Source of the DNA: an uncultured Candidatus Saccharibacteria bacterium
GTDB taxonomy: Bacteria > Patescibacteriota > Minisyncoccia > Phycocordibacterales > UBA918
Direction: 5' to 3'
NCBI GenBank assembly: GCA_964608605.1
Contig: CAZSOS010000002.1
Coordinates: forward strand, 36,601 to 100,600
DNA: 64,000 bases
The notes below the pieces were generated by a model, which saw only the letters and a program-made list of their open reading frames with translations, was not told the DNA's origin and did no database searches. Position numbers and translations under genes: made by a program. Shown one piece after another: positions 5,186-43,730 of the stretch; positions within the stretch are counted from its first letter, which is position 1; each line of letters begins with the position of its first letter.

Positions 5186-5922
5186 CGCTTCCTCCTTTGC
5201 GCTTGAAGCGCGTCCTCTAGCGAGTTGATGCCGATGGCCTCCTCCGGAGGCATGGGCACGGTATGAACTTCCCTGCCGTCTACGATAGCGATTTCGGTGA
5301 GTTCCGTCAAATAATACTCGCCGGTGGTCTCATTCGGCCGCACGCGGGGCAAAGCCGCCTTCAGCCAGAGGGTATCGAAACAATTGCCGCCCGGAGTCAC
5401 TTCGTTGATGGCTCGTTCGTCCAAAGTGGCGTTCTTGTACTCGACCACGCCGATCACCCGGCCGTTCTCGTCGCGCTTCACCCGGCCGAAGGCCGTGAAA
5501 ACGCCGCGCCAGTCGTCATAGTCGGGCAAATCGACCGAGAACATGGCCATGGTCGGACGCGCGTCCACGAAAGCGGCGCGCATCCGTTCGATACTGGCCG
5601 TGGAGATGAAGGGATTGTCACCATAGAGGACGAGAGTGGGAGTCTCGTCGTCGAGCAACGGCAGCGCCGCCTTGGCGGCCGTGGCGGTGCCGGATAGTTC
5701 CACCTGCTGCGCGTAGCGGTACCGATCGCCCAGTTCGGCCTGAATGAGATCTCCCTGGTGCCCGACCACGATGATCGGCGGCAGAAAGCCCTCGGCCGCC
5801 TCCAGGGCTTCGATGACGTGGCGGATCATCGGCTTGCCTTCGAACGGAAAAAGCGGTTTTGGCAACTCGCTCTTCATCCGGCTTCCCTTGCCGCCGGCAA
5901 GGATAATGGGTTGGATGTTCAT
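5182..5922 (-). CDS. sugar-phosphate nucleotidyltransferase (GlmU N-terminal-like, NTP_transferase fold)
   Basis: The protein begins MNIQPIILAGGKGSRM, the G-rich nucleotide-binding loop. The ORF-track extension to 5991 runs into the tRNA-Ile gene and was rejected. Confidence 0.7.
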   Translation of the reverse strand: MNIQPIILAGGKGSRMKSELPKPLFPFEGKPMIRHVIEALEAAEGFLPPIIVVGHQGDLIQAELGDRYRYAQQVELSGTATAAKAALPLLDDETPTLVLYGDNPFISTASIERMRAAFVDARPTMAMFSVDLPDYDDWRGVFTAFGRVKRDENGRVIGVVEYKNATLDERAINEVTPGGNCFDTLWLKAALPRVRPNETTGEYYLTELTEIAIVDGREVHTVPMPPEEAIGINSLEDALQAQRRKR

Positions 5923-5933
5923 TCTGGTATTTG

Positions 5934-6006
5934 TGCGCGTTCTAGGGTTCGAACCTAGGACCTTTCGAGTATCAGTCGAATGCTCTACCAACTGAGCTAA
6001 ACGCGC
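5934..6006 (-). tRNA. tRNA-Ile (anticodon GAT)
   Basis: Hand-folded cloverleaf: acceptor GCGCGTT/AACGCGC, D-arm GCTC-AGTTGGTA-GAGC, anticodon arm TTCGA-CTGATAC-TCGAA, T-arm CTAGG-TTCGAAC-CCTAG. Confidence 0.8.
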
Positions 6007-6036
6007 GAATGTCGCTCGGCTATACTAGCAGAACGA

Positions 6037-6060
6037 AGGGCTATATTCAACCGCGGGTTT
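6037..6060 (-). promoter_or_regulatory. candidate sigma70-type promoter for tRNA-Ile (TTGAAT, 17-nt spacer, TAGTAT)
   Basis: The reverse complement of 6012-6042 reads TTGAAT, a 17-nt spacer, then TAGTAT, about 11 nt upstream of the tRNA 5' end. Confidence 0.45.
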
Positions 6061-6072
6061 CTGTGGTCGGAA

Positions 6073-6101
6073 TTGAAAAAGCCCGAGTTTTCAGGCATAA
6101 T
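6073..6101 (+). promoter_or_regulatory. candidate sigma70-type promoter for tRNA-Leu (TTGAAA, 17-nt spacer, CATAAT)
   Basis: TTGAAA at 6073-6078 and CATAAT at 6096-6101 with a 17-nt spacer, 8 nt upstream of the tRNA 5' end. Confidence 0.5.
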
Positions 6102-6109
6102 CAGGCGAC

Positions 6110-6196
6110 GCCGAAGTGGTGAAATTGGTATACACGCTACGTTCAGGTCGTAGTGGGGGCAACCCCGTGCTGGTTCAAGTCCAGTCTTCGGCACCA
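6110..6196 (+). tRNA. tRNA-Leu (anticodon CAG), long variable arm, CCA encoded
   Basis: Acceptor GCCGAAG/CTTCGGC, anticodon arm GCTAC-GTTCAGGT-CGTAG reading CAG, variable arm TGGGGGCAACCCCGTG, T-loop GGTTCAAGTCC, then CCA. Confidence 0.8.
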
Positions 6197-6204
6197 AAGA
6201 GAAA

Positions 6205-6231
6205 AACAGCCCTTGCGGGCTGTTTTTCGAT
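6205..6231. terminator. bidirectional intrinsic terminator hairpin (AAAACAGCCC-TTGC-GGGCTGTTTTT)
   Basis: A GC stem flanked by an A-run and a T-run, sitting between the tRNA-Leu end and the convergent gene's stop. Confidence 0.6.
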
Positions 6232-6312
6232 ACTGGTGCGAGGCGGGGCGGTGTATTTCGCTTCCTTTAACCTATCTTCTGTAGGCAGCTTTTTGCGTGT
6301 CTCTCTTCAGTT

Positions 6313-7008
6313 CTATTGCCGGCCGAACAGCATAGTGCCGTCGTCTTCAAGCTCCAGGACCAGCGCCCCGGAACCGGCGAAGAAGAAGCTCTTCACCCCT
6401 TCCAAGGCCGAGGTGAACTCGTGTTCTTGCGAACCTTCGCAATACATCATGGTCGAGGCTAGCGGACCAAAGGCCAACGCGTGATCGTTGACCTCGTAGC
6501 CGCCGAAGAAGCCGTTGCAGTCGGTCGTGCCGTTCACCCGACTCTCATCCGCGTCGAAGGTGATGGTGAAGGCGTCGGTCCGGCGCGGCTCGGTCACGAC
6601 CTCACCGATAGTGGTGGCTTGCCAAACCCAAGTGCCGGCCAACTTCAGGGCGTCGGTCAGGCCGCCGACGTTGCCGGAGAATATCTGCCGGCCATCTTTA
6701 GAAATGGTGACCGCCTCCCCCCGATTCCACAGCTCCAGACCCAGATCATCGTTGACGTAACGGGCTCCGGAAGCGGCGATGGCCAGGTCGAAGGCCAGGC
6801 CATCGTAGCCCAAGCCGTTCAAGACCGCGTGATCATCGCCTTTAAATTCCACCCTCACCGCCTCCCCCGTCTCCGGGCTGGTAAAGGTTATAGCTTCTTC
6901 CGCCATATTGGATCCCCAGGTTCCAGGTCCTTTCAGATAAAGGGCCAAGGATATCAGGGCGACCACTATGACCGCCACCAACAAGATCCATGATAGTTTT
7001 TTATCCAT
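6313..7008 (-). CDS. membrane-anchored MliC-like plus META/HslJ-domain protein
   Basis: N-terminal TM segment MDKKLSWILLVAVIVVALISLAL. The C-terminal part carries the META-domain pattern TTDCNGFFGGY...LAFGPLASTMMYC. The start was chosen at MDKK. Confidence 0.55.
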   Translation of the reverse strand: MDKKLSWILLVAVIVVALISLALYLKGPGTWGSNMAEEAITFTSPETGEAVRVEFKGDDHAVLNGLGYDGLAFDLAIAASGARYVNDDLGLELWNRGEAVTISKDGRQIFSGNVGGLTDALKLAGTWVWQATTIGEVVTEPRRTDAFTITFDADESRVNGTTDCNGFFGGYEVNDHALAFGPLASTMMYCEGSQEHEFTSALEGVKSFFFAGSGALVLELEDDGTMLFGRQ

Positions 7009-7225
7009 AAAATGATCGATGAGTTTAATTATTGATCCGAACTCCGCGTCGAAGGCCCTGACAAAGACAGCGCCATCGACAACTTCTTCGGCATGATTAG
7101 ATACCCCAAACTTCCCCAGCATCAGCGCGACCGACCTCTACCACGCTCGAAGGCATTCGTACTTCCAGTATACACCAGGCTTGATAAGTCGAAGGCGGTC
7201 ATGGGTCCGATGGTATAATGAGCGC

Positions 7226-7585
7226 ATGAACAGCCTTCAAGAGTTGCTCGGGTCGCTGATGACCTTTCTCAATAACGTCATAATTCCTTTCCTCTTCGGA
7301 CTGGCGCTCCTGTTCTTCATCTGGAACGCTTTCCGCTGGCTCATCCTCGGCGGGGCCGAAAAGGACGCCAAGGACAACGCCAAGCGGCTGGCGCTTTATG
7401 GCATCGGAGCTTTCGTGTTCTTGGTGAGCCTTTGGGGCATCGTGAACATGTTCGTGAACGGCTTGGGACTAGGCGGCGTGGATCAGGTAGAGCCGGACTA
7501 CATGTCGAACATGCCCGGCGGGTACGGCAGCGGAGGTGGCGGAGGCAACAACCAATATACCGAACCATTCCGAGGGCCCCGATAA
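7226..7585 (+). CDS. small two-TM membrane protein, TrbC/VirB2-like pilin (putative)
   Basis: Two hydrophobic helices separated by a Lys-rich loop, with a Gly-rich C-terminus. This architecture is common in CPR T4SS pilin-like proteins. The start was chosen at MNSLQ. Confidence 0.4.
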   Translation: MNSLQELLGSLMTFLNNVIIPFLFGLALLFFIWNAFRWLILGGAEKDAKDNAKRLALYGIGAFVFLVSLWGIVNMFVNGLGLGGVDQVEPDYMSNMPGGYGSGGGGGNNQYTEPFRGPR

Positions 7586-7587
7586 CA

Positions 7588-7616
7588 AAAAGCCGGCGCT
7601 ACGCGCCGGCTTTTTG
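7588..7616 (+). terminator. intrinsic terminator (AAAAAGCCGGCGC-TACG-CGCCGGCTTTTTG)
   Basis: Perfect GC hairpin followed by a T-run immediately after the stop codon. Confidence 0.7.
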
Positions 7617-7924
7617 TTATCTGTTTGAAAACTGAATCCGCATCACCAAATAAAACTTTCAGATTTGGATACAGTTGTGCTGGTTGGAGGAATTTTTACG
7701 CAGGAGACGTATATAGACATACGGCGACCAAGTAAAAATTCCGAAACCAGTGCAAATGTGCCAAATCTGGGAGTTTGTATCTTCTTTTGTCCCATCCTTT
7801 AGTTAATCTAGGTCTCTCCCTAGAGTCTCGATACCAGTTAAGGTTTGAGTATCATGACCATTGTGTACTCGATCGAGATACACAATATCGACGTAACCAA
7901 TGATCCGAAGATCACCGATGTCCA

Positions 7925-9385
<1,461 letters not shown>

Positions 9386-9750
9386 ACAGGTTTGGATAGC
9401 TCTTGGCTCTTAGTCGTTAGCTCTTAGAAAACTAAGGGCTAATTGCTAAGCGCTAGATGCTAACTTACCTGGGACCAGCCTACTCTGCGCCTGTACTTTG
9501 CTTGGCACTTCAGCTGATCCACCTAAAGGATGAGACAAAAGAAAGTGCAAACTGTTCTTTTGTCTCGCTACCAATACGGTGGTTGGCCGTATTGGATTTT
9601 CCGGTGCGGCCTTTGCTTCGCAAAGGCCGCACCGATGATGCGTAGAACCGGTTTTGAAACCGGTTCCATTATTCGATTGTCAAACAGCTCTGAGGACCGG
9701 ACCGGAGCGCTTCAAATAAGCCTTTCTCCCTTTCCCCCTCAAGTGGCGCT

Positions 9751-19461: not shown

Positions 19462-19482
19462 TATACTAGTCAGACTAGTATA
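19462..19482. repeat. REP-like 21-bp palindrome TATACTAGTCAGACTAGTATA (copy 1)
   Basis: Perfect palindrome of the same consensus as the copies flanking the RAYT gene at 32.1-33.1 kb. Confidence 0.8.
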
Positions 19483-24309: not shown

Positions 24310-24430
24310 TTGAAGTTGGCGCCTACCTACTCTGCCCCAATTAAGGAGTACCATCGGCGATGGAGGGCTTAACTGCCGTGTTCGGAATGAGAACGGGTGT
24401 ACCCCCTCCGCTAAAGCACCAACTTCAAAA
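24310..24430 (-). rRNA. rrf: 5S ribosomal RNA
   Basis: The reverse complement contains CCGTTCTCATTCCGAACACGGCAGTTAAGC...GCCGATGGTACT...GGGCAGAGTAGGTAGGCGCC, with helix I pairing TTGAAGTTGGTGC/GCGCCAACTTCAA. Confidence 0.8.
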
Positions 24431-24504
24431 CTTCAATATTCGATTTTCAATCTGTACTTGACCAACTTGGATATTCTGAAGCGTAGCCATTTCCAAGAAA
24501 TGGC

Positions 24505-24580
24505 TGGCTGGGGCGGAAGGAGTCGAACCAACACCTGAGGGATAGTACCCTCCGTTCTAACCGTTAAACTAAGCCCCAGC
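24505..24580 (-). tRNA. tRNA-like gene with a non-canonical anticodon loop (apparently 6 nt) and U-U pairs in the T-stem; possible pseudo-tRNA
   Basis: Hand fold gives a good acceptor stem, a D-arm and the T-loop TTCGACT, but the anticodon stem GAGGG/CCCTC encloses only 6 nt (TACTAT). The isotype cannot be assigned by hand. Confidence 0.35.
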
Positions 24581-24602
24581 AAAAGAACTTGAAACAAATT
24601 AT

Positions 24603-24680
24603 TGGTCGGAGCAACGGGATTTGAACCCGTGACCCCTGGCTACCCGAGCCTAGTGCGCTACCAGGCTGCGCTACACTCCG
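24603..24680 (-). tRNA. tRNA-Pro-like (D-arm identical to tRNA-Pro, loop CTCGGGT reading CGG), anticodon stem irregular
   Basis: Acceptor CGGAGTG/TGCTCCG plus A and CCA, D-arm GCGC-AGCCTGGTA-GCGC, T-arm ACGGG-TTCAAAT-CCCGT. The anticodon region CTAGG-CTCGGGT-AGCCA does not pair canonically. Confidence 0.5.
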
Positions 24681-24996
24681 ACCTAGAGTAGGTGATATTT
24701 TTATCTTCCTACTCAAAACCAGTTCCCCGCTGGTTTATTGTTCGCAGTCTAATTAAGACCGCTTCAGAATATCCAAGCTTGTCCCGTACCAAGACGAATG
24801 TCTTTGGTACGGGATATTTCGCACATCTTCTTACCAGGTTCACACTTCACCCAAAATCGTACAGCGATATCCAGCATTCCTTGCAGGAAATACGTCCGAT
24901 TAGTACTTCTCGGCTCAACGTATTACTACGCTTACACCTAAAGCCTATCAACCTAATCATCTCTTAGGGGACTTCATGATACCTAATCTCAGAGTT

Positions 24997-25029
<33 letters not shown>

Positions 25030-25171
25030 ATTCCCGACATAGCTACTGGGCAGTGCCGCTGGCGCGACAGCCCACAGACCAGAGGTCAGTTCATCCCGGT
25101 CCTCTCGTACTAGGGACAAATCTCTTCAAGTATCGACGCCTGCAGTAGATAGGAGACCAACCTGTCTCACG

Positions 25172-25530
25172 CAATAGTAGCTGATTAGCTTTTAGCACTT
25201 AGCTATTAGCCATTCAACGCCATCATTACTGACGGGATCGGACTGTAACTTAGCCGGTTCTCGGCTTCCGATATTCAGTCTCTACAAGTGCACGAGTAAA
25301 CTTTTTTGCCAGTTTTACTCTGCTTCTCTCGGTATTGCCCGCAACATTACTTGTTAGGGTTTTACCGATTTTAATCGGATCATATCACTGATATTCCTAT
25401 CAGTGACCGCCGTGTAGGTTGGTTCTTTTCTTTGTTCATAAACGAAAAGTAAAAACAATTCTTCGAAGGGGTTTAGACTGCTGAATTTCCCTTAGCCAAG
25501 AGCTAAGTGCTAATAACTAAGAGCTATTCA
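25172..25530 (-). mobile_element. 359-nt ORF-less insertion in 23S between GGGTTTAGACCGT and CGTGAGACAGG (E. coli ~2593, the I-CreI/I-CeuI homing site); group I intron candidate with TTAGC-repeat inverted ends
   Basis: Exon sequence is continuous across the insertion. The insertion ends are TTAGC-rich inverted repeats at 25178-25210 and 25497-25527. Confidence 0.55.
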
Positions 25531-26187
25531 ACGGTCTAAACCCAGCTCGCGTATCTTTTTAATTGGCGAACAGCCAAACCCTTGGGACCTGCTCCAGCCC
25601 CAGGATAAGATGAGCCGACATCGAGGTGCCGAACCGTGCCGTCGCTTTGGACGCTTGGGCACGACTAGCCTGTTATCCCCAGGGTAACTTTTATCGGGTA
25701 ATCTCCGGCGGCATCTAACGCCAACCATCGGTTCACTATGCTCCGCTTTCGCGTCTGTTCGGCATCTACGCCTTACAGTCAAGCCAACTTTTGCCATTGC
25801 ACTATCGGCACGGTTTCCATTCGCGCCTAGTTGACCTTGAGACCCCTCCGTTACATTTTGGGAGGGTAGCGCCCCACTAAAACTGCCTGCCACTCACTGT
25901 CCCCGCCGCGTTTGACGCGACGGGTTAGAAACTGCCCAATTTAAGATAGGTATTTCACTGACGACTCCACGGTACCCGAAAGCCCGCTTCAAAGTCTCCC
26001 TACTATGCTACGCATAAATCAAACAGCCCCAATAAGAAGCTACAGTAAAGCTCCTGGGGTCTCTTCGTCTAACTGCAGGTAGGCTGCATCTTCACAGCCA
26101 TTGTATTTTCACCGAGCAGGTCCTTGAGACAGTTTCCCAGTCGTTACGCCATTCGTGCACGTCGGAACTTACCCGACAAGGAATTGC

Positions 26188-26420
26188 GCTCTATAATTCC
26201 TTCTTTAATGTAGATACCCGCGTATCTACGTACACAATAGGACTCTATCTTCACCCTCTTATATACTAGTCAGACTAGTATAAAGGTGGGGTGTGCAACA
26301 TTTGGTCTCTTGTTGGTTGCAATTGGAAATACTAATGATTACTCACTAGTAAGGTAACTATGGCTCGGGCTGTTTAACTCTACAATCGTTCTAATCCGTA
26401 GAGCACACTTCCGAAGAAAC
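26188..26420 (-). mobile_element. ~233-nt ORF-less insertion in 23S between GGTAGAGCGC and (G)CAATTCCTTGTCGGG (E. coli ~1917 intron site); carries an internal REP-like palindrome
   Basis: Flanking exon sequence aligns to AACTATAACGGTCCTAAGGTAGCG|AAATTCCTTGTCGGG. Palindrome TATACTAGTCAGACTAGTATA lies at 26262-26282. A 7-nt direct repeat AGAGCGC sits at the junctions. Confidence 0.5.
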
Positions 26421-26647
26421 GCGCTCTACCTTAGAACGATTATAGTTATCGCTGACATTGACGGGGGCTTACACAGTCCAGCACCCAGCACCACTCTCAC
26501 AAACTTTGTTTGTGAAGATGGTGCTGGGCACCGCCCGTGCTTAACCTTCCCGCATTGGTCAGGCGTCACCCTCTATACATGGACTTACGTCTTCGCAGAG
26601 AGCTGTGTTTTTGTTAAACAGTCGCCAGGAAATCTTTCGCTGCGGCC

Positions 26648-26836
26648 GAGCGCATCACGCTACGCGCGATGACTAAATTCAAAATTGAAAAGTCAAAATG
26701 CAAAATTACAATGCAAAGTTCAAAATTTCGCTACGAACTCTATGAGTACGTGACGTAATTTTTACTTTTTATTTGTACTTTTGATTTTTGAGATTTTCCT
26801 TTTCAATTTAGCATCACATGCAATGTGATGCGCTCG
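26648..26836 (-). repeat. AT-rich IVS-like expansion in the 23S helix-63 region (copy A of a duplicated AT-rich element)
   Basis: Inserted between the complementary arms GAGCGCATCAC and GTGATGCGCTC. Contains a 47-nt segment (26689-26735) identical to 27405-27451. Confidence 0.6.
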
Positions 26837-27374
26837 GCAGGCCTTATCCCGAAGTTACGGCCGCTTTTTTGCCGAGTTCCTTAAGGACCCCTCACTCGTT
26901 CGCCTTGGTCTTCTCGACCCTACCACCTGTGTCGGTTTGCGGTACGGAACCACTATGCTTAACCCAAACGAAGTTTTTCTCGGAAGCGTGCTCCTTACAT
27001 TTCCTTGGCCGTAGCCGCAGATTCAGACTCTACTCGGATGATATCGCGCGGATTTGCCTACGCGACGTCCTCATAGCTCCAGCACCAATCCAATAAGATG
27101 CTGTAAGTACAACGCTCCGTCCCTCCATAGGAACATAGCAGTGTGCAGGAATATTAACCTGCTCTCCATCGCCTCCGGCGTTCGCCATCGGCTTAGGACC
27201 GACTAACCCTTCGCTGATCACCATCGCGAAGGAAACCTCGGTATTTCGGCGGACGGGGTTCTCACCCGTCTTGCGGTTACTTGTGCCGGCATTCTCACTT
27301 CGCATCGCTCCAGGTAGGGTCTCCCCCACCATTCATCGCAGATACGAACGCTCTCCTACCACTCAACGCACCTC

Positions 27375-27525
27375 ACAAAAGTTCGTTGCTAAAATAAAAA
27401 TGTAAAAGTCAAAATGCAAAATTACAATGCAAAGTTCAAAATTTCGCTACGTGCTATCCTGCGCGTTGCGTGATTTTGATTTTTGAGATTTCAATTTTCA
27501 ATTTAGCATCTCACCTCTGTGAGAT
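27375..27525 (-). repeat. AT-rich IVS-like expansion in 23S helix 45 (copy B)
   Basis: Inserted in the helix-45 stem CAGCGCATCTCAC/GTGAGGTGCGTTG, the site of the classical enterobacterial and Coxiella IVS. Shares the 47-nt repeat and the GATTTTTGAGATTT motif with copy A. Confidence 0.6.
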
Positions 27526-27615
27526 GCGCTGAATCCGCAGTTTCGGTAATATGCTTGAGCCCCGATCATCTTCGGCGCAAGGACTCTCGACCAGTGAGCT
27601 GTTACGCTTTCTTTA

Positions 27616-27650
<35 letters not shown>

Positions 27651-28210
27651 TAGAGAATCCTCACCTCCTCCAGATGCACTGAGCATATATTTAGGGACCT
27701 TAACTGGCGATCTGGGCTGTTCCCCTTTTGACCAATGGAGCTTCTCCCCCATAGTCTAACTGCCGAGCTATAATCTCTGGTATTCGGAGTTTGATAGGAA
27801 CAACGAGCTTTCGCCCTGTTTGTTCCTTCCAGTGCTCTACCCCCAGAGGGACCACTCGACGCCAACCCAAAAGCTGTTTCGGAGAGAACCAGCTATTACG
27901 GAAATCGATTAGCTTTTCACTCCTTACCACAAGTCATCCGATGGTTTTGTACGGCCAACCGGTTCGGGCCTCCACGAGGTTTTACCCTCGCTTCACCCTG
28001 CTCATGGCAAGCTCTTCCCGCTTCGGGTCGTACCCCAACTCCATATTCGCGCTATTCACGCTCGCTTTCACTGCGCCTCCGCGGGTTTTCCGCTTAGACA
28101 AGGAATTAAGGTACACTCGCCGGCTCATTCTTCAATAGGCACGCCGCAACCCCGAAAGGCCGCGACTCCTTGTAAGTGTATGGTTTCAGATCTATTTCAC
28201 TCCCCTCTCC

Positions 28211-28256
<46 letters not shown>

Positions 28257-28554
28257 TTAAAAGATATTTAGCCTTACCAGTTAGTGCTGGCAGATTCATC
28301 CGAGCTATTCATGTCTCGAACTACTCAGGAACAAGATCAACGGAGTCATATACATTTCAAATACGGGACTATTACCCACTGGGGTCGAGCTTCCCAACTC
28401 GTTCTTCTATATATATGTTTTGTAACTCCGCGCAACTAAATGCGGACCTTGCCCTACAACCCCGTAAATATTGCTATCAACGGTTTGGGCTATTCCCGTT
28501 TCGCTCGCCGCTACTAAGGGAATCGCGAGAACCTTCTTCCTGGTTTCAATGGCC

Positions 28555-28878
28555 CCAGCACCACTTTTTGGTTTCAATGGATTTGAGACGACTCACATCT
28601 TTTCAATAATTCTTGTTTGCCGCGACCATGTTGTTTAAGTCGCTGCTCACGCTTGTCCGCATCGTCTTTAGAACGGTATGCTTCTGCGTATATCAAGATC
28701 CATTTCCCTGATGTTCTGTGCGTAGACTTATTGCGTGAGCTATTATGCTCGCTAAGTCGTCGCCTCAAATCATTGGTTCTTCCAATGTAGATATCTCTAG
28801 TATCACTGTGTTGTATCACATAGACACTGTACATAATCCACATTGTATCAAAACCAAAAAGTGGTGCTGGGTAGTTTT
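28555..28878 (-). mobile_element. IVS-like element in 23S domain I (E. coli ~210) bounded by 21-bp perfect inverted repeats CCCAGCACCACTTTTTGGTTT; encodes a GIY-YIG protein
   Basis: Inverted repeats at 28555-28575 and 28858-28878. The flanking rRNA aligns to GAAAAGAAA...GATTCCC..AGTAGCGGCGAGCGAA. Confidence 0.65.
28574..28843 (-). CDS. GIY-YIG nuclease superfamily protein (89 aa) encoded inside the 23S rRNA gene
   Basis: YSVYVIQHSDTRDIYIGRTNDLRRRLSEHN carries the GIY...YIG motifs with conserved Arg and Glu. Confidence 0.6.
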   Translation of the reverse strand: MWIMYSVYVIQHSDTRDIYIGRTNDLRRRLSEHNSSRNKSTHRTSGKWILIYAEAYRSKDDADKREQRLKQHGRGKQELLKRCESSQIH

Positions 28879-29150
28879 AACCAGAAAGAAAGTTCCGTAT
28901 ATTGCTTTCTTTTCCTCTCGGTACTGAGATGTTTCACTTCCCGAGGTGTGCTCTCGCATAACGCGAGTTTCCGACGTAATCGGAAGGGTTTCCCCATTCG
29001 GAGATCTCCGGATCGAAGGTTGATTGTCACCTCCCCGAAGCTTATCGCAGACATTCTACGTCCTTCATCGCTCTTTTAAGCCAAGGCATCCACCATACAC
29101 CCTTACATTCCTGCAAGGAATGCTGTACACCGCTGTACGATTCTGATCAT

Positions 29151-30786: not shown

Positions 30787-30898
30787 ATTTGTGAATTTTT
30801 AATTTCCAATTTTTAATTTTGAATCAATGTTGAATTAACCAATTTTGAAACATTCACTCATTCGAATTTGATTCGAAATTCGTAATTCAAAATTCGAC

Positions 30899-31387: not shown

Positions 31388-31480
31388 TTATTTAGCTTTT
31401 AGTCCTTAGCTTCCAGCTCTTAGCAGAGTTTTGCCTCCGGCAAAACAAAAGCTAAGTGCTAATAACTAAGTGCTAGATAA
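31388..31480. repeat. TTAGC/CTAAG-rich inverted-repeat element around a central hairpin (family member)
   Basis: AGCTTTTAGTCCTTAGCTTCCAGCTCTTAGC ... AAAAGCTAAGTGCTAATAACTAAGTGCTAG. A 22-nt stretch is identical to 25501-25522. Confidence 0.5.
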
Positions 31481-43145: not shown

Positions 43146-43283
43146 CATATATTGGTTATTGGTATCGGCTACTCGCAAATTTTGAATTACTAATTTTGAA
43201 TTTTGATTCAATTTTTAATGTTTAAATTTTGAAACATTAGCTAATTCAACATTGATTCGAAATTTGAAATTCATCATTCGAAA

Positions 43284-43730
43284 TTAGAAGGGTATATCAT
43301 CGGGATTTATTTCTTCTTCAGGGTAGTCAGGTAGCTTAGGCGCGTTCGGAGTGTTGGCGGCATTGGAAGCGGAAACGGTATTGTCTCCGCCACCAGTACC
43401 CCGGCCGCCGTCGGCGCCGAACTGGAAGTTGTCAGCCACGATCTCGGTGCGATAGCGCTTCACGCCATCCTGCTCCCAGGAACGGGTCTGCATGCGGCCC
43501 TCGATGTACACTGGCCGGCCCTTCTTGAGCCACTGCCCCATGACGTCGGCCAATTTGCCGAAAGCCACGACATCGTGGAATTCGGTCTGCTCCTGTTTCT
43601 TGCCGTCCTTATCGGTATAGGTGCGGTTGGTGGCGACAGCGAACGAACAGACCGCTTGGCCGCTCGGAAGCGCTCTCTTCTCGGGATCACGGGTCAGGTT
43701 GCCGTAGATGATGGCCTTGTTGATGTACAT
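43284..43730 (-). CDS. ssb: single-stranded DNA-binding protein
   Basis: OB-fold core, a Gly-rich linker and the acidic C-terminal tip DDIPF. Confidence 0.85.
   Translation of the reverse strand: MYINKAIIYGNLTRDPEKRALPSGQAVCSFAVATNRTYTDKDGKKQEQTEFHDVVAFGKLADVMGQWLKKGRPVYIEGRMQTRSWEQDGVKRYRTEIVADNFQFGADGGRGTGGGDNTVSASNAANTPNAPKLPDYPEEEINPDDIPF

Follow-up and report, generated by a model that had tools for sequence, protein, structure and literature searches.

The stretch of DNA analysed here (the window) comprises 64,000 nucleotides of contig CAZSOS010000002.1 from an uncultured Candidatus Saccharibacteria bacterium, and it carries a 23S ribosomal RNA (rRNA) gene on the minus strand at 24879-29116. 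This is the one 23S rRNA gene seen in the 64-kb window. It matches the Rfam model of the bacterial large subunit (LSU) rRNA over the full model with 2293 bits, and it is approximately 1300 nt longer than that model, with inserts at six places. The insert under study occupies 25172-25530 of the minus strand, is exactly 359 nt long and separates the bases that correspond to U2593 and C2594 of E. coli. In the direction of the rRNA, the upstream exon ends in GGGUUUAGACCGU, the insert begins with UGAAUAGCUC and ends with CUACUAUUG, and the downstream exon starts with CGUGAGACAGG; with longer flanks, the junctions read GCUGGGUUUAGACCGU / UGAAUAGCUC...CUACUAUUG / CGUGAGACAGGUUGG. The numbering 2593/2594 is our own count along the E. 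coli sequence GGGUUUAGAACGU / CGUGAGACAG, in which we take A2602 as the anchor. An initial annotation, made from the letters alone, had described an insertion without an open reading frame (ORF) at these coordinates and at this site, and both the sequence and the Rfam LSU match bear this out. The longest ORF within the insert is 34 aa, and no ORF of more than 35 aa overlaps it on either strand except for a spurious frame that runs through the upstream exon. The same annotation had called the site that of I-CreI/I-CeuI and had placed it in the A loop. We take only I-CreI to belong to 2593, the I-CeuI site presumably lying near position 1923, and we take position 2593 to be part of helix 93, beside the peptidyl-transferase ring, and not of the A loop. 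As set out below, we consider the insert to be a functional, ORF-less, compact group I intron at this site (L2593), very probably self-splicing, and we place the probability of this reading at about 0.85.

The Rfam group I intron model RF00028 matches 25219-25466 of the minus strand over the full model length (31 bits, E=1e-5), and the J6/7-P7 motif GUAGAGACU matches the consensus region of this model. Homologues were retrieved from metagenomes with a pattern taken from the P5-P4-P6-P7 core, GGGCAATACCGAG N18-48 AGAGACTGAA (23 nt). The pattern returned 77 loci, of which 64 (50 distinct) represent complete introns inserted at exactly this position. The 50 distinct homologues are 251-514 nt long, which is too short for an endonuclease gene. 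Their boundaries are the same throughout: the 5' exon ends in ...ACCGU, the last intron base is G, and the 3' exon starts with CGUGAGAC (CGUAAGAC in one lineage).

We built a group I model of the window intron manually and mapped it onto the alignment of the 50 sequences. The controls were models with pairing partners slid by 1-3 columns and 500 shuffles. The 69 pairs of the model are formed in 95.2% of the cells of the alignment, compared to 30-41% with slid partners. Compensatory double changes are seen at 36 of the 69 pairs (shuffle mean 25.9), and none of the 500 shuffles reached any of the observed values. P2, P3, P8 and P9 covary at nearly every pair. P4, P5 and P7 are invariant; for one strand of each, this follows in part from the search pattern, but the partner strands lie outside it. 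One pair of P6 is A-U in the window and in the relative with the most similar 23S (L028), and G-C in the others. The two strands of P7, G-A(bulge)-GACUG and CAGUCC, are invariant and, judged by their sequence, would fit a guanosine-binding site. P9.0 covaries in the register of the family (AUC/GAU, AUG/CAU, UUC/GAA, UCC/GGA); the register in the window is one base off, and on the alignment it reaches 58%, compared to 89% for the family register. Only three nucleotides (AAU) separate the 5' strand of P7 from the 3' strand of P3. There is no P2.1, P5abc or P7.1/7.2, and both L2 and L9 are GNRA tetraloops.

The window intron's own sequence forms every core helix, and thus it is not degenerate. 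The initial annotation had proposed that the intron was degenerate or else that an element of another kind used the site. With a full covarying core and 50 homologues, the intron holds, and both the degeneracy and the different element fall away. Of the checks that it had suggested, a scan with the Rfam group I model gave the RF00028 match described above, and both P7 (with its bulged A) and P3 are present. It had also considered that a group I core might be absent; the core is present and is supported by covariation.

The nearest genome was found through a flanking protein with a VWA domain. A search with this protein among GTDB representatives matched only the metagenome-assembled genome Patescibacteria group bacterium UBA6201 (78% identity). 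The order 23S, tRNA, 5S, VWA-domain protein gene is common to the window and UBA6201, and the 23S of UBA6201 has an intron of 388 nt at the same site. The flanking protein and the gene order suggest that the host is a bacterium like those of the Patescibacteria or Candidate Phyla Radiation (CPR). In L028, the 23S exons are 96-98% identical to those of the window, and the 304-nt intron has a core that is 86% identical. A more distant homologue, L018, has a host 23S of 86-89% identity and an intron core of 61% identity. The window intron is a mosaic with respect to these relatives: UBA6201 is nearest to it in the 5' part, L028 in the core and L018 in the tail.

These data also bear on the idea that this 23S copy is an rRNA pseudogene without function and the insert a decaying intron that no longer splices. 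The approximately 1300 nt of inserts at six places, which include a GIY-YIG ORF, would suit such a copy, as would an RF00028 score under the gathering threshold. Against this, the exons align with the LSU model end to end, the gene order is that of the relative UBA6201, and all core helices are intact. Moreover, a survey of CPR rRNA genes reports that the 23S gene of a CPR genome is usually the only one and often contains many inserts (PMC11270868). We regard a pseudogene as hardly credible.

The exons appear to be read by one octamer, CACGGCGG. Its 3' half, GCGG, pairs with the 5' exon CCGU to form P1 in 49-50 of the 50 homologues, and U2593 faces a guide G in a U·G wobble in all 50. Its 5' half, CACG, pairs with the 3' exon CGUG to form P10, again in 49-50 of 50, with a fifth P10 pair in 38. 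In the lineage with the exon CGUA, the guide reads UACG, giving one compensatory A-U pair in P10. The placement of the guide is supported because the 4-5 nt before P2 change with the exon where the same core class occurs elsewhere. At a second 23S site (CCUCGAU before the intron, GUCGGC after it), the bases before P2 are GUCG, matching the exon CGAU. In introns of protein genes, the guide is GGGGG after the exon ACCCU and GGCCG after the exon ACGGU. By its complementarity to both exons, CACGGCGG is a classical P10/P1 guide arrangement.

The core class with identical P4-P7 motifs was observed at targets other than L2593 (loci L008, L069 and L070; L024, L045, L055, L064 and L068). One target is the second 23S site, CCUCGAU / GUCGGCUC, at approximately position 2500. 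The class also lies inside GC-rich protein-coding genes, with an ORF after the core. Its presence at several targets points to one ribozyme lineage that may have spread over them.

A second segment of the intron, GCA-GUCUAAACCC, binds the 5' exon as well. The guide takes the last four exon bases, CCGU (25534-25531), and this segment takes the bases upstream. Two of its positions covary with the exon (CG in 41 and UA in 9; AU in 25 and GC in 25), with zero mismatches. The resulting hairpin of 10-13 bp is present in all L2593 members and continues into the first bases of the intron. The long hairpin formed by the exon GGGUUUAGACCGU with GCAGUCUAAACCC was our first choice for the catalytic P1. 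It was rejected because U2593 faces A in 42 of the 50 homologues, C2591 is mismatched in 29 of 50, and there is no adjacent partner for P10. The splice-site U faces G only in the window, in UBA6201 and in two others. We therefore consider it less likely that the long hairpin is itself P1.

A splicing pathway can be proposed from this arrangement. The role of the hairpin on exon bases 2581-2593 is probably to present the region of the splice site. The guide, directly 5' of P2, would displace a deliberately weak stretch of 3-4 nt of the exon-binding hairpin and pair with CCGU to give the catalytic P1, with U2593 in the U·G wobble. Exogenous guanosine bound in P7 would attack after U2593. The omega-G (25172), placed by P9.0, would then move into the G site, and the same guide would hold the 3' exon CGUG in P10. 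Ligation of the exons would restore helix 93. The elements of the model are collected in Table 1.

Table 1. Elements of the proposed group I intron at L2593 and of its exons, in the order of the rRNA strand (positions in the window)
Element	Position	Strand	Basis or remark
Whole intron	25172..25530	-	after U2593; first base U (25530), last base omega-G (25172); same boundaries in 50 distinct homologues
5' exon bases GGGUUUAGACCGU (approximately 2581-2593)	25531..25543	-	bound by the intron; pair counts
L1 hairpin capping P1	25482..25530	-	stem UGAAU/AUUCA around the 5' TTAGC array; local fold -19.2 kcal/mol
Exon-binding segment GCA-GUCUAAACCC	25469..25481	-	complementary to exon bases 2581-2593
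Variable linker/hairpin between exon-binding segment and guide	25415..25468	-	length and sequence vary across the family
Internal guide sequence CACGGCGG	25407..25414	-	invariant in the family; abuts P2 on its 5' side
P2 hairpin UCACUGAUA-GGAA-UAUCAGUGA, GNRA loop	25385..25406	-	nine of nine pairs compensatory
P3 5' strand UCCGAU	25374..25379	-	6/6 pairs compensatory, 98.7% paired
P4-P5-P6: P4 UCGGUA/UACCGA, P5 CCC/GGG, P6 and P6a	25286..25368	-	P4, P5 and P6 100% paired; RF00028 alignment
P7 5' strand G-A(bulge)-GACUG	25276..25282	-	pairs with 25240-25245; six pairs in 50/50
P3 3' strand AUCGGA	25267..25272	-	covarying pair counts
P8 hairpin AGCCG-AGAAC-CGGCU	25252..25266	-	5/5 pairs compensatory
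J8/7 (AAGUUA) and P7 3' strand CAGUCC	25240..25251	-	ACAGUCC invariant, outside the search pattern
J7/9 and P9.0 5' strand (GAUC), P9 CCGUCA-GUAA-UGAUGG, GNRA loop	25220..25239	-	P9: 5/6 pairs compensatory, 99.3% paired
P9.1-position hairpin	25180..25218	-	base GUUGA/UCAGC around the 3' array; local fold -16.1 kcal/mol
3' tail UACUAUUG: P9.0 3' strand and omega-G	25172..25179	-	all 50 homologues end in G
3' exon, first four bases CGUG	25168..25171	-	paired with the guide sequence in P10

Arrays of heptamer units lie near both ends of the intron. They have period 7, with units TTAGCNN and their complement; Tandem Repeats Finder reports one such array at 25178-25214, and the arms at 25185-25210 and 25495-25520 are 85% complementary over 26 nt. 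The 5' array is made of the units UAGCUCU, UAGUUAU, UAGCACU, UAGCUCU and UGGCUAA, and the 3' array of GGCUAAU, AGCUAAG, UGCUAAA and AGCUAAU. The pattern TTAGCNNTTAGC has 19 matches in the window, against 2.9 expected, and no shuffle had 19. These matches are grouped within the intron and in the stretches 9397-9463 and 31392-31480, and 20 nt of the 5' array recur unchanged at 31451-31470. The initial annotation was thus right that TTAGC-type arrays occur at the ends of the insert and recur elsewhere in the window. Its view of them as terminal inverted repeats that define the element does not stand, as the arrays are internal and occupy two peripheral positions; L028 has neither of them, and UBA6201 has only the 5' one. 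A miniature inverted-repeat transposable element, or a transposon with terminal inverted repeats, was rejected on the same internal position of the arrays, the lack of a target duplication, and the homologues without arrays.

L028 has a short L1, a short tail and no hairpin at the P9.1 position, while in UBA6201 the array in L1 is present and the P9.1 hairpin is a different one. The P9.1 base GUUGA/UCAGC and the UAC that follows are common to L031, L018 and L033. A search for TTAGC arrays in the 78 fetched loci found none. Since L028 is without both arrays, UBA6201 has the L1 array only, and each array folds alone, the arrays are dispensable for the fold. We take them to be presumably neutral additions, specific to the lineage, at two solvent-exposed positions (the P1 cap and P9.1), made from a repeat family whose hairpins are found all over this genome. 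Both hairpins are built from one unit in opposite orientation, so that their mutual complementarity is mostly automatic, and it is most simply a by-product of the common unit. Most simply, repeats of the host would have settled in loops that tolerate them.

The complementarity can also be read differently. The arrays might pair with each other, forming a helix of approximately 24-26 bp between L1 and P9.1 that would clamp the 5' splice-site helix to the 3' tail. Of the 26 positions, 24 are pairable, and L1 against the tail gives z=-6.5 when compared to shuffled tails. The duplex between the 26-nt arms is worth -30.4 kcal/mol, and that between the whole L1 and the whole tail -39.5 kcal/mol. Despite a distant host and core, L018 has complementary TTAGC-type arrays in both positions (-41.3 kcal/mol, z=-6.4). 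Added tethering is plausible as P1 and P10 have only 4+4 bp. On the other hand, the pairing is absent from L028 and only half present in UBA6201. Each array folds locally about as well, the two hairpins (Table 1) being about as stable as the arm-arm duplex, and if the arms are paired in a nested fold, this fold is less favourable than the canonical one by 14 kcal/mol. Complementarity arises largely by itself when both arrays repeat one unit, and of the six variable positions only four match. The helix would be pseudoknotted with both P1 and P10. The other nine long-tail members of the family have no comparable complementarity between L1 and tail: eight have z no stronger than -0.9, and UBA6201 has z=-2.3, a strength matched by 4 of 200 shuffles. 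We hold such a clamp to be improbable. The variant in which the arrays form a panhandle in the excised intron, which would block reverse splicing or recruit RNase III, meets the same evidence, and we give it little credence. More generally, a selected L1-P9.1 pairing, or an exchange of modules between introns, has a low probability in our estimate.

The complementary arms also raise the question of whether the insert is an intervening sequence (IVS) of the type processed by RNase III. In that case, the arms would serve as the processing stem, and cleavage without ligation would leave the 23S rRNA fragmented. Like such an IVS, the insert is extra hairpin-forming sequence in 23S with long complementary arms at its ends, and two of the other inserts of this 23S gene, at 27531-27364 and 26836-26647, are heptamer hairpins at positions classical for IVSs. 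However, an IVS has no ribozyme core and is not religated, whereas the window insert, located in helix 93, contains the complete group I core. The covarying core, the guide, the U and omega-G boundaries and P9.0 would be left unexplained, and homologues at the same site have no arrays. Because the arrays start 5-10 nt inside the insert, IVS cleavage would leave foreign bases in helix 93 by the catalytic centre. An IVS is, in our judgement, very improbable.

Several points weigh against a functional, self-splicing group I intron. The RF00028 score of 31 bits is below the Rfam gathering score of 50. The match is lost when the 411 nt around the insert are searched alone, where only chance miRNA-like matches to hairpins are found; wider stretches recover it. 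The invariance of the 3' strands of P4 and P5 and of the 5' strand of P7 is partly by construction, as these belong to the 23-nt retrieval pattern. The exon bases do not vary, which leaves no room for covariation in P1 and P10; both helices were assigned from their complementarity and position and by comparison with homologues inserted elsewhere. P1 also has a competitor in the long exon-binding hairpin, which in the window places U2593 opposite G. The layout resembles the IC3 type of the Azoarcus and tRNA introns, a likeness taken from the architecture alone. A global alignment with an Azoarcus intron sequence was uninformative and was not used. The complementary arrays of L018 are awkward for pure neutrality. 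Finally, both splicing and strand displacement are predictions from the DNA sequence.

Among the other inserts of the 23S gene, one at position 1931 (L1931) also resembles a group I intron. It lies at approximately 26192-26428 of the minus strand, is 237 nt long and ORF-less, and is bounded as ...CUAAGGU / AGAGCG...UUAUAG / AGCGCAAUUCC. RF00028 matches it with 24 bits, and in this alignment P4-P6 of the model is deleted entirely. The 5' strand of P3 is separated from J6/7 by CAAC alone, and we located no equivalent of P4-P6 in this insert. It has a long exon-binding hairpin, like the L2593 intron, and is kept in four related organisms (homologues in L001, at approximately 5692-5925, L022 and L065). 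The lack of P4-P6 would make it an unusual group I-like intron. The 23S of UBA6201 has an extra insert of approximately 778 nt at the sarcin-ricin loop (near 2657; L001 7037-7815) with a group I match of 28.7 bits, and the window is without it.

The remaining inserts are of other types and are absent from UBA6201. The insert in domain I of 23S (28553-28872, minus strand) measures 320 nt against UBA6201 and approximately 375 nt against the Rfam model. Its ORF (28588-28837) encodes a GIY-YIG protein of 83 aa (Pfam PF01541, E=8e-19), and it lies in a hairpin whose arms start with CCCAGCACCAC. A small perfect hairpin insert at 26484-26528 has the arm motif CCCAGCACCA found in the GIY-YIG insert and no ORF; possibly this is the GIY-YIG element in an empty form. 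The inserts at 27364-27531 and 26647-26836 (minus strand), in helix 45 and in the helix 63 region, are long A/T-rich heptamer hairpins of the AAATTCA and AAAATGC types. They look like RNase III-type IVSs and would imply a fragmented 23S.

Repeats are also found outside the L2593 intron. Seven copies of the 21-nt palindrome TATACTAGTCTGACTAGTATA are found in the window (0 expected), at 19462, 26262, 32075, 32098, 32817, 33012 and 33035. One copy falls within the P8 loop of the L1931 intron; UBA6201 shares it with the window, but the L022 and L065 homologues do not have it. Long intergenic hairpins consist of inverted heptamer arrays of several unit families (9397-9463, 30794-30897, 31392-31480, 43178-43289 and others), and one heptamer hairpin lies 13 nt upstream of the 5' end of 16S. 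The rRNA genes of the window are split (regions 5933-9384 and 24314-24879), with 16S 15 kb from 23S. An ORF with a META domain (6313-7122) lies between 16S and tRNA-Ile. Between 23S and 5S there are two weak tRNA-like genes, one of which was read as Ser with the anticodon ACT.

The finding is ordinary for the host group. ORF-less group I introns at 2593 in CPR bacteria are already published in a survey of CPR rRNA genes (Tsurumaki et al. 2024, PMC11270868), which credits the first report of ORF-less 23S introns in the CPR to Brown et al. 2015. According to the survey, inserts occur in 82% of the 23S genes, the recurrent group I sites include 1931, 2593 and 2657, and 222 ORF-less group I introns are counted in 23S genes. 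GIY-YIG ORFs are reported only in inserts that are not intron-like, and short IVS-type inserts at classical positions. The survey classed inserts by Rfam hits and ORF content, using E-value thresholds rather than the gathering score, and it cites earlier work in which such inserts are removed from transcripts. The window intron agrees with these introns in host group, gene, position, group I type and lack of an ORF. Every insert type of the window 23S (L1931, GIY-YIG and IVS-type) fits this catalogue, including the note on GIY-YIG ORFs. The supplement of the survey held nothing on 2593 or UBA6201. The features seen at the level of the family, namely the invariant guide, the second exon-binding hairpin and the peripheral hairpins built from heptamer repeats, are refinements that we did not find described in the parts of the survey text consulted.

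The initial annotation had named introns encoding LAGLIDADG endonucleases as the known occupants of the site, which is incomplete in view of the ORF-less introns listed by the survey. Bacterial L2593 introns were first described in thermophilic cyanobacteria, and all of those have LAGLIDADG genes (PMC1995217). The Chlamydomonas intron Cr.LSU (I-CreI) and the introns of Synechococcus C1/C9 and Thermosynechococcus elongatus share the insertion after U2593 and the group I type (PMC1995217). The LAGLIDADG introns are approximately 745 nt long, with an endonuclease gene and P7.1/P7.2 (PMC1995217), whereas the window intron has 359 nt and neither of these. It probably belongs to a different structural subgroup. 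With the IC3 introns (Azoarcus tRNA-Ile, cyanobacterial tRNA-Leu) it shares a compact core, a guide followed by P2 with a GNRA loop, a P9 with a GNRA loop, P9.0, and the absence of P2.1, P5abc and P7.1/7.2. It differs from them in lying in rRNA and not in tRNA, and in its structured L1 of approximately 116 nt with a second exon-binding segment. The heptamer arrays recall the short tandemly repeated repetitive (STRR) heptanucleotides of cyanobacteria and the TAACTGA repeats of Beggiatoaceae (PMC4679880), which are also short tandem arrays of 7 bases in mainly non-coding DNA. The window arrays differ in unit and host; they form inverted pairs and long hairpins, and they are also found in rRNA inserts and intron loops. 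A full-text literature search found no description of such heptamer repeats for Patescibacteria.

The repeats of the window, both the heptamer hairpins and the 21-nt palindrome, would seem to settle preferentially in tolerant intron and rRNA loops. An unlikely but more far-reaching possibility is that the heptamer family has been co-opted as a swappable RNA "velcro", in which an L1-P9.1 clamp of approximately 25 bp offsets the minimal 4+4 bp of P1 and P10. If this were true, the recurrence in L018 and the mosaic structure of the window intron would reflect selection and the exchange of modules. Together, the exon-binding hairpin (10-13 bp) and the 8-nt guide amount to the recognition of a target of approximately 17-20 nt, which could allow the intron to spread by reverse splicing without an endonuclease. 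The 50 homologues provide a structure supported by covariation, an invariant 8-nt guide that would read both exons, and a second exon-binding hairpin that runs through the splice site. Such an arrangement would be a natural case of the selection of a very short P1 within a highly structured rRNA precursor. The same family may also help to explain how endonuclease-free introns persist at one site.

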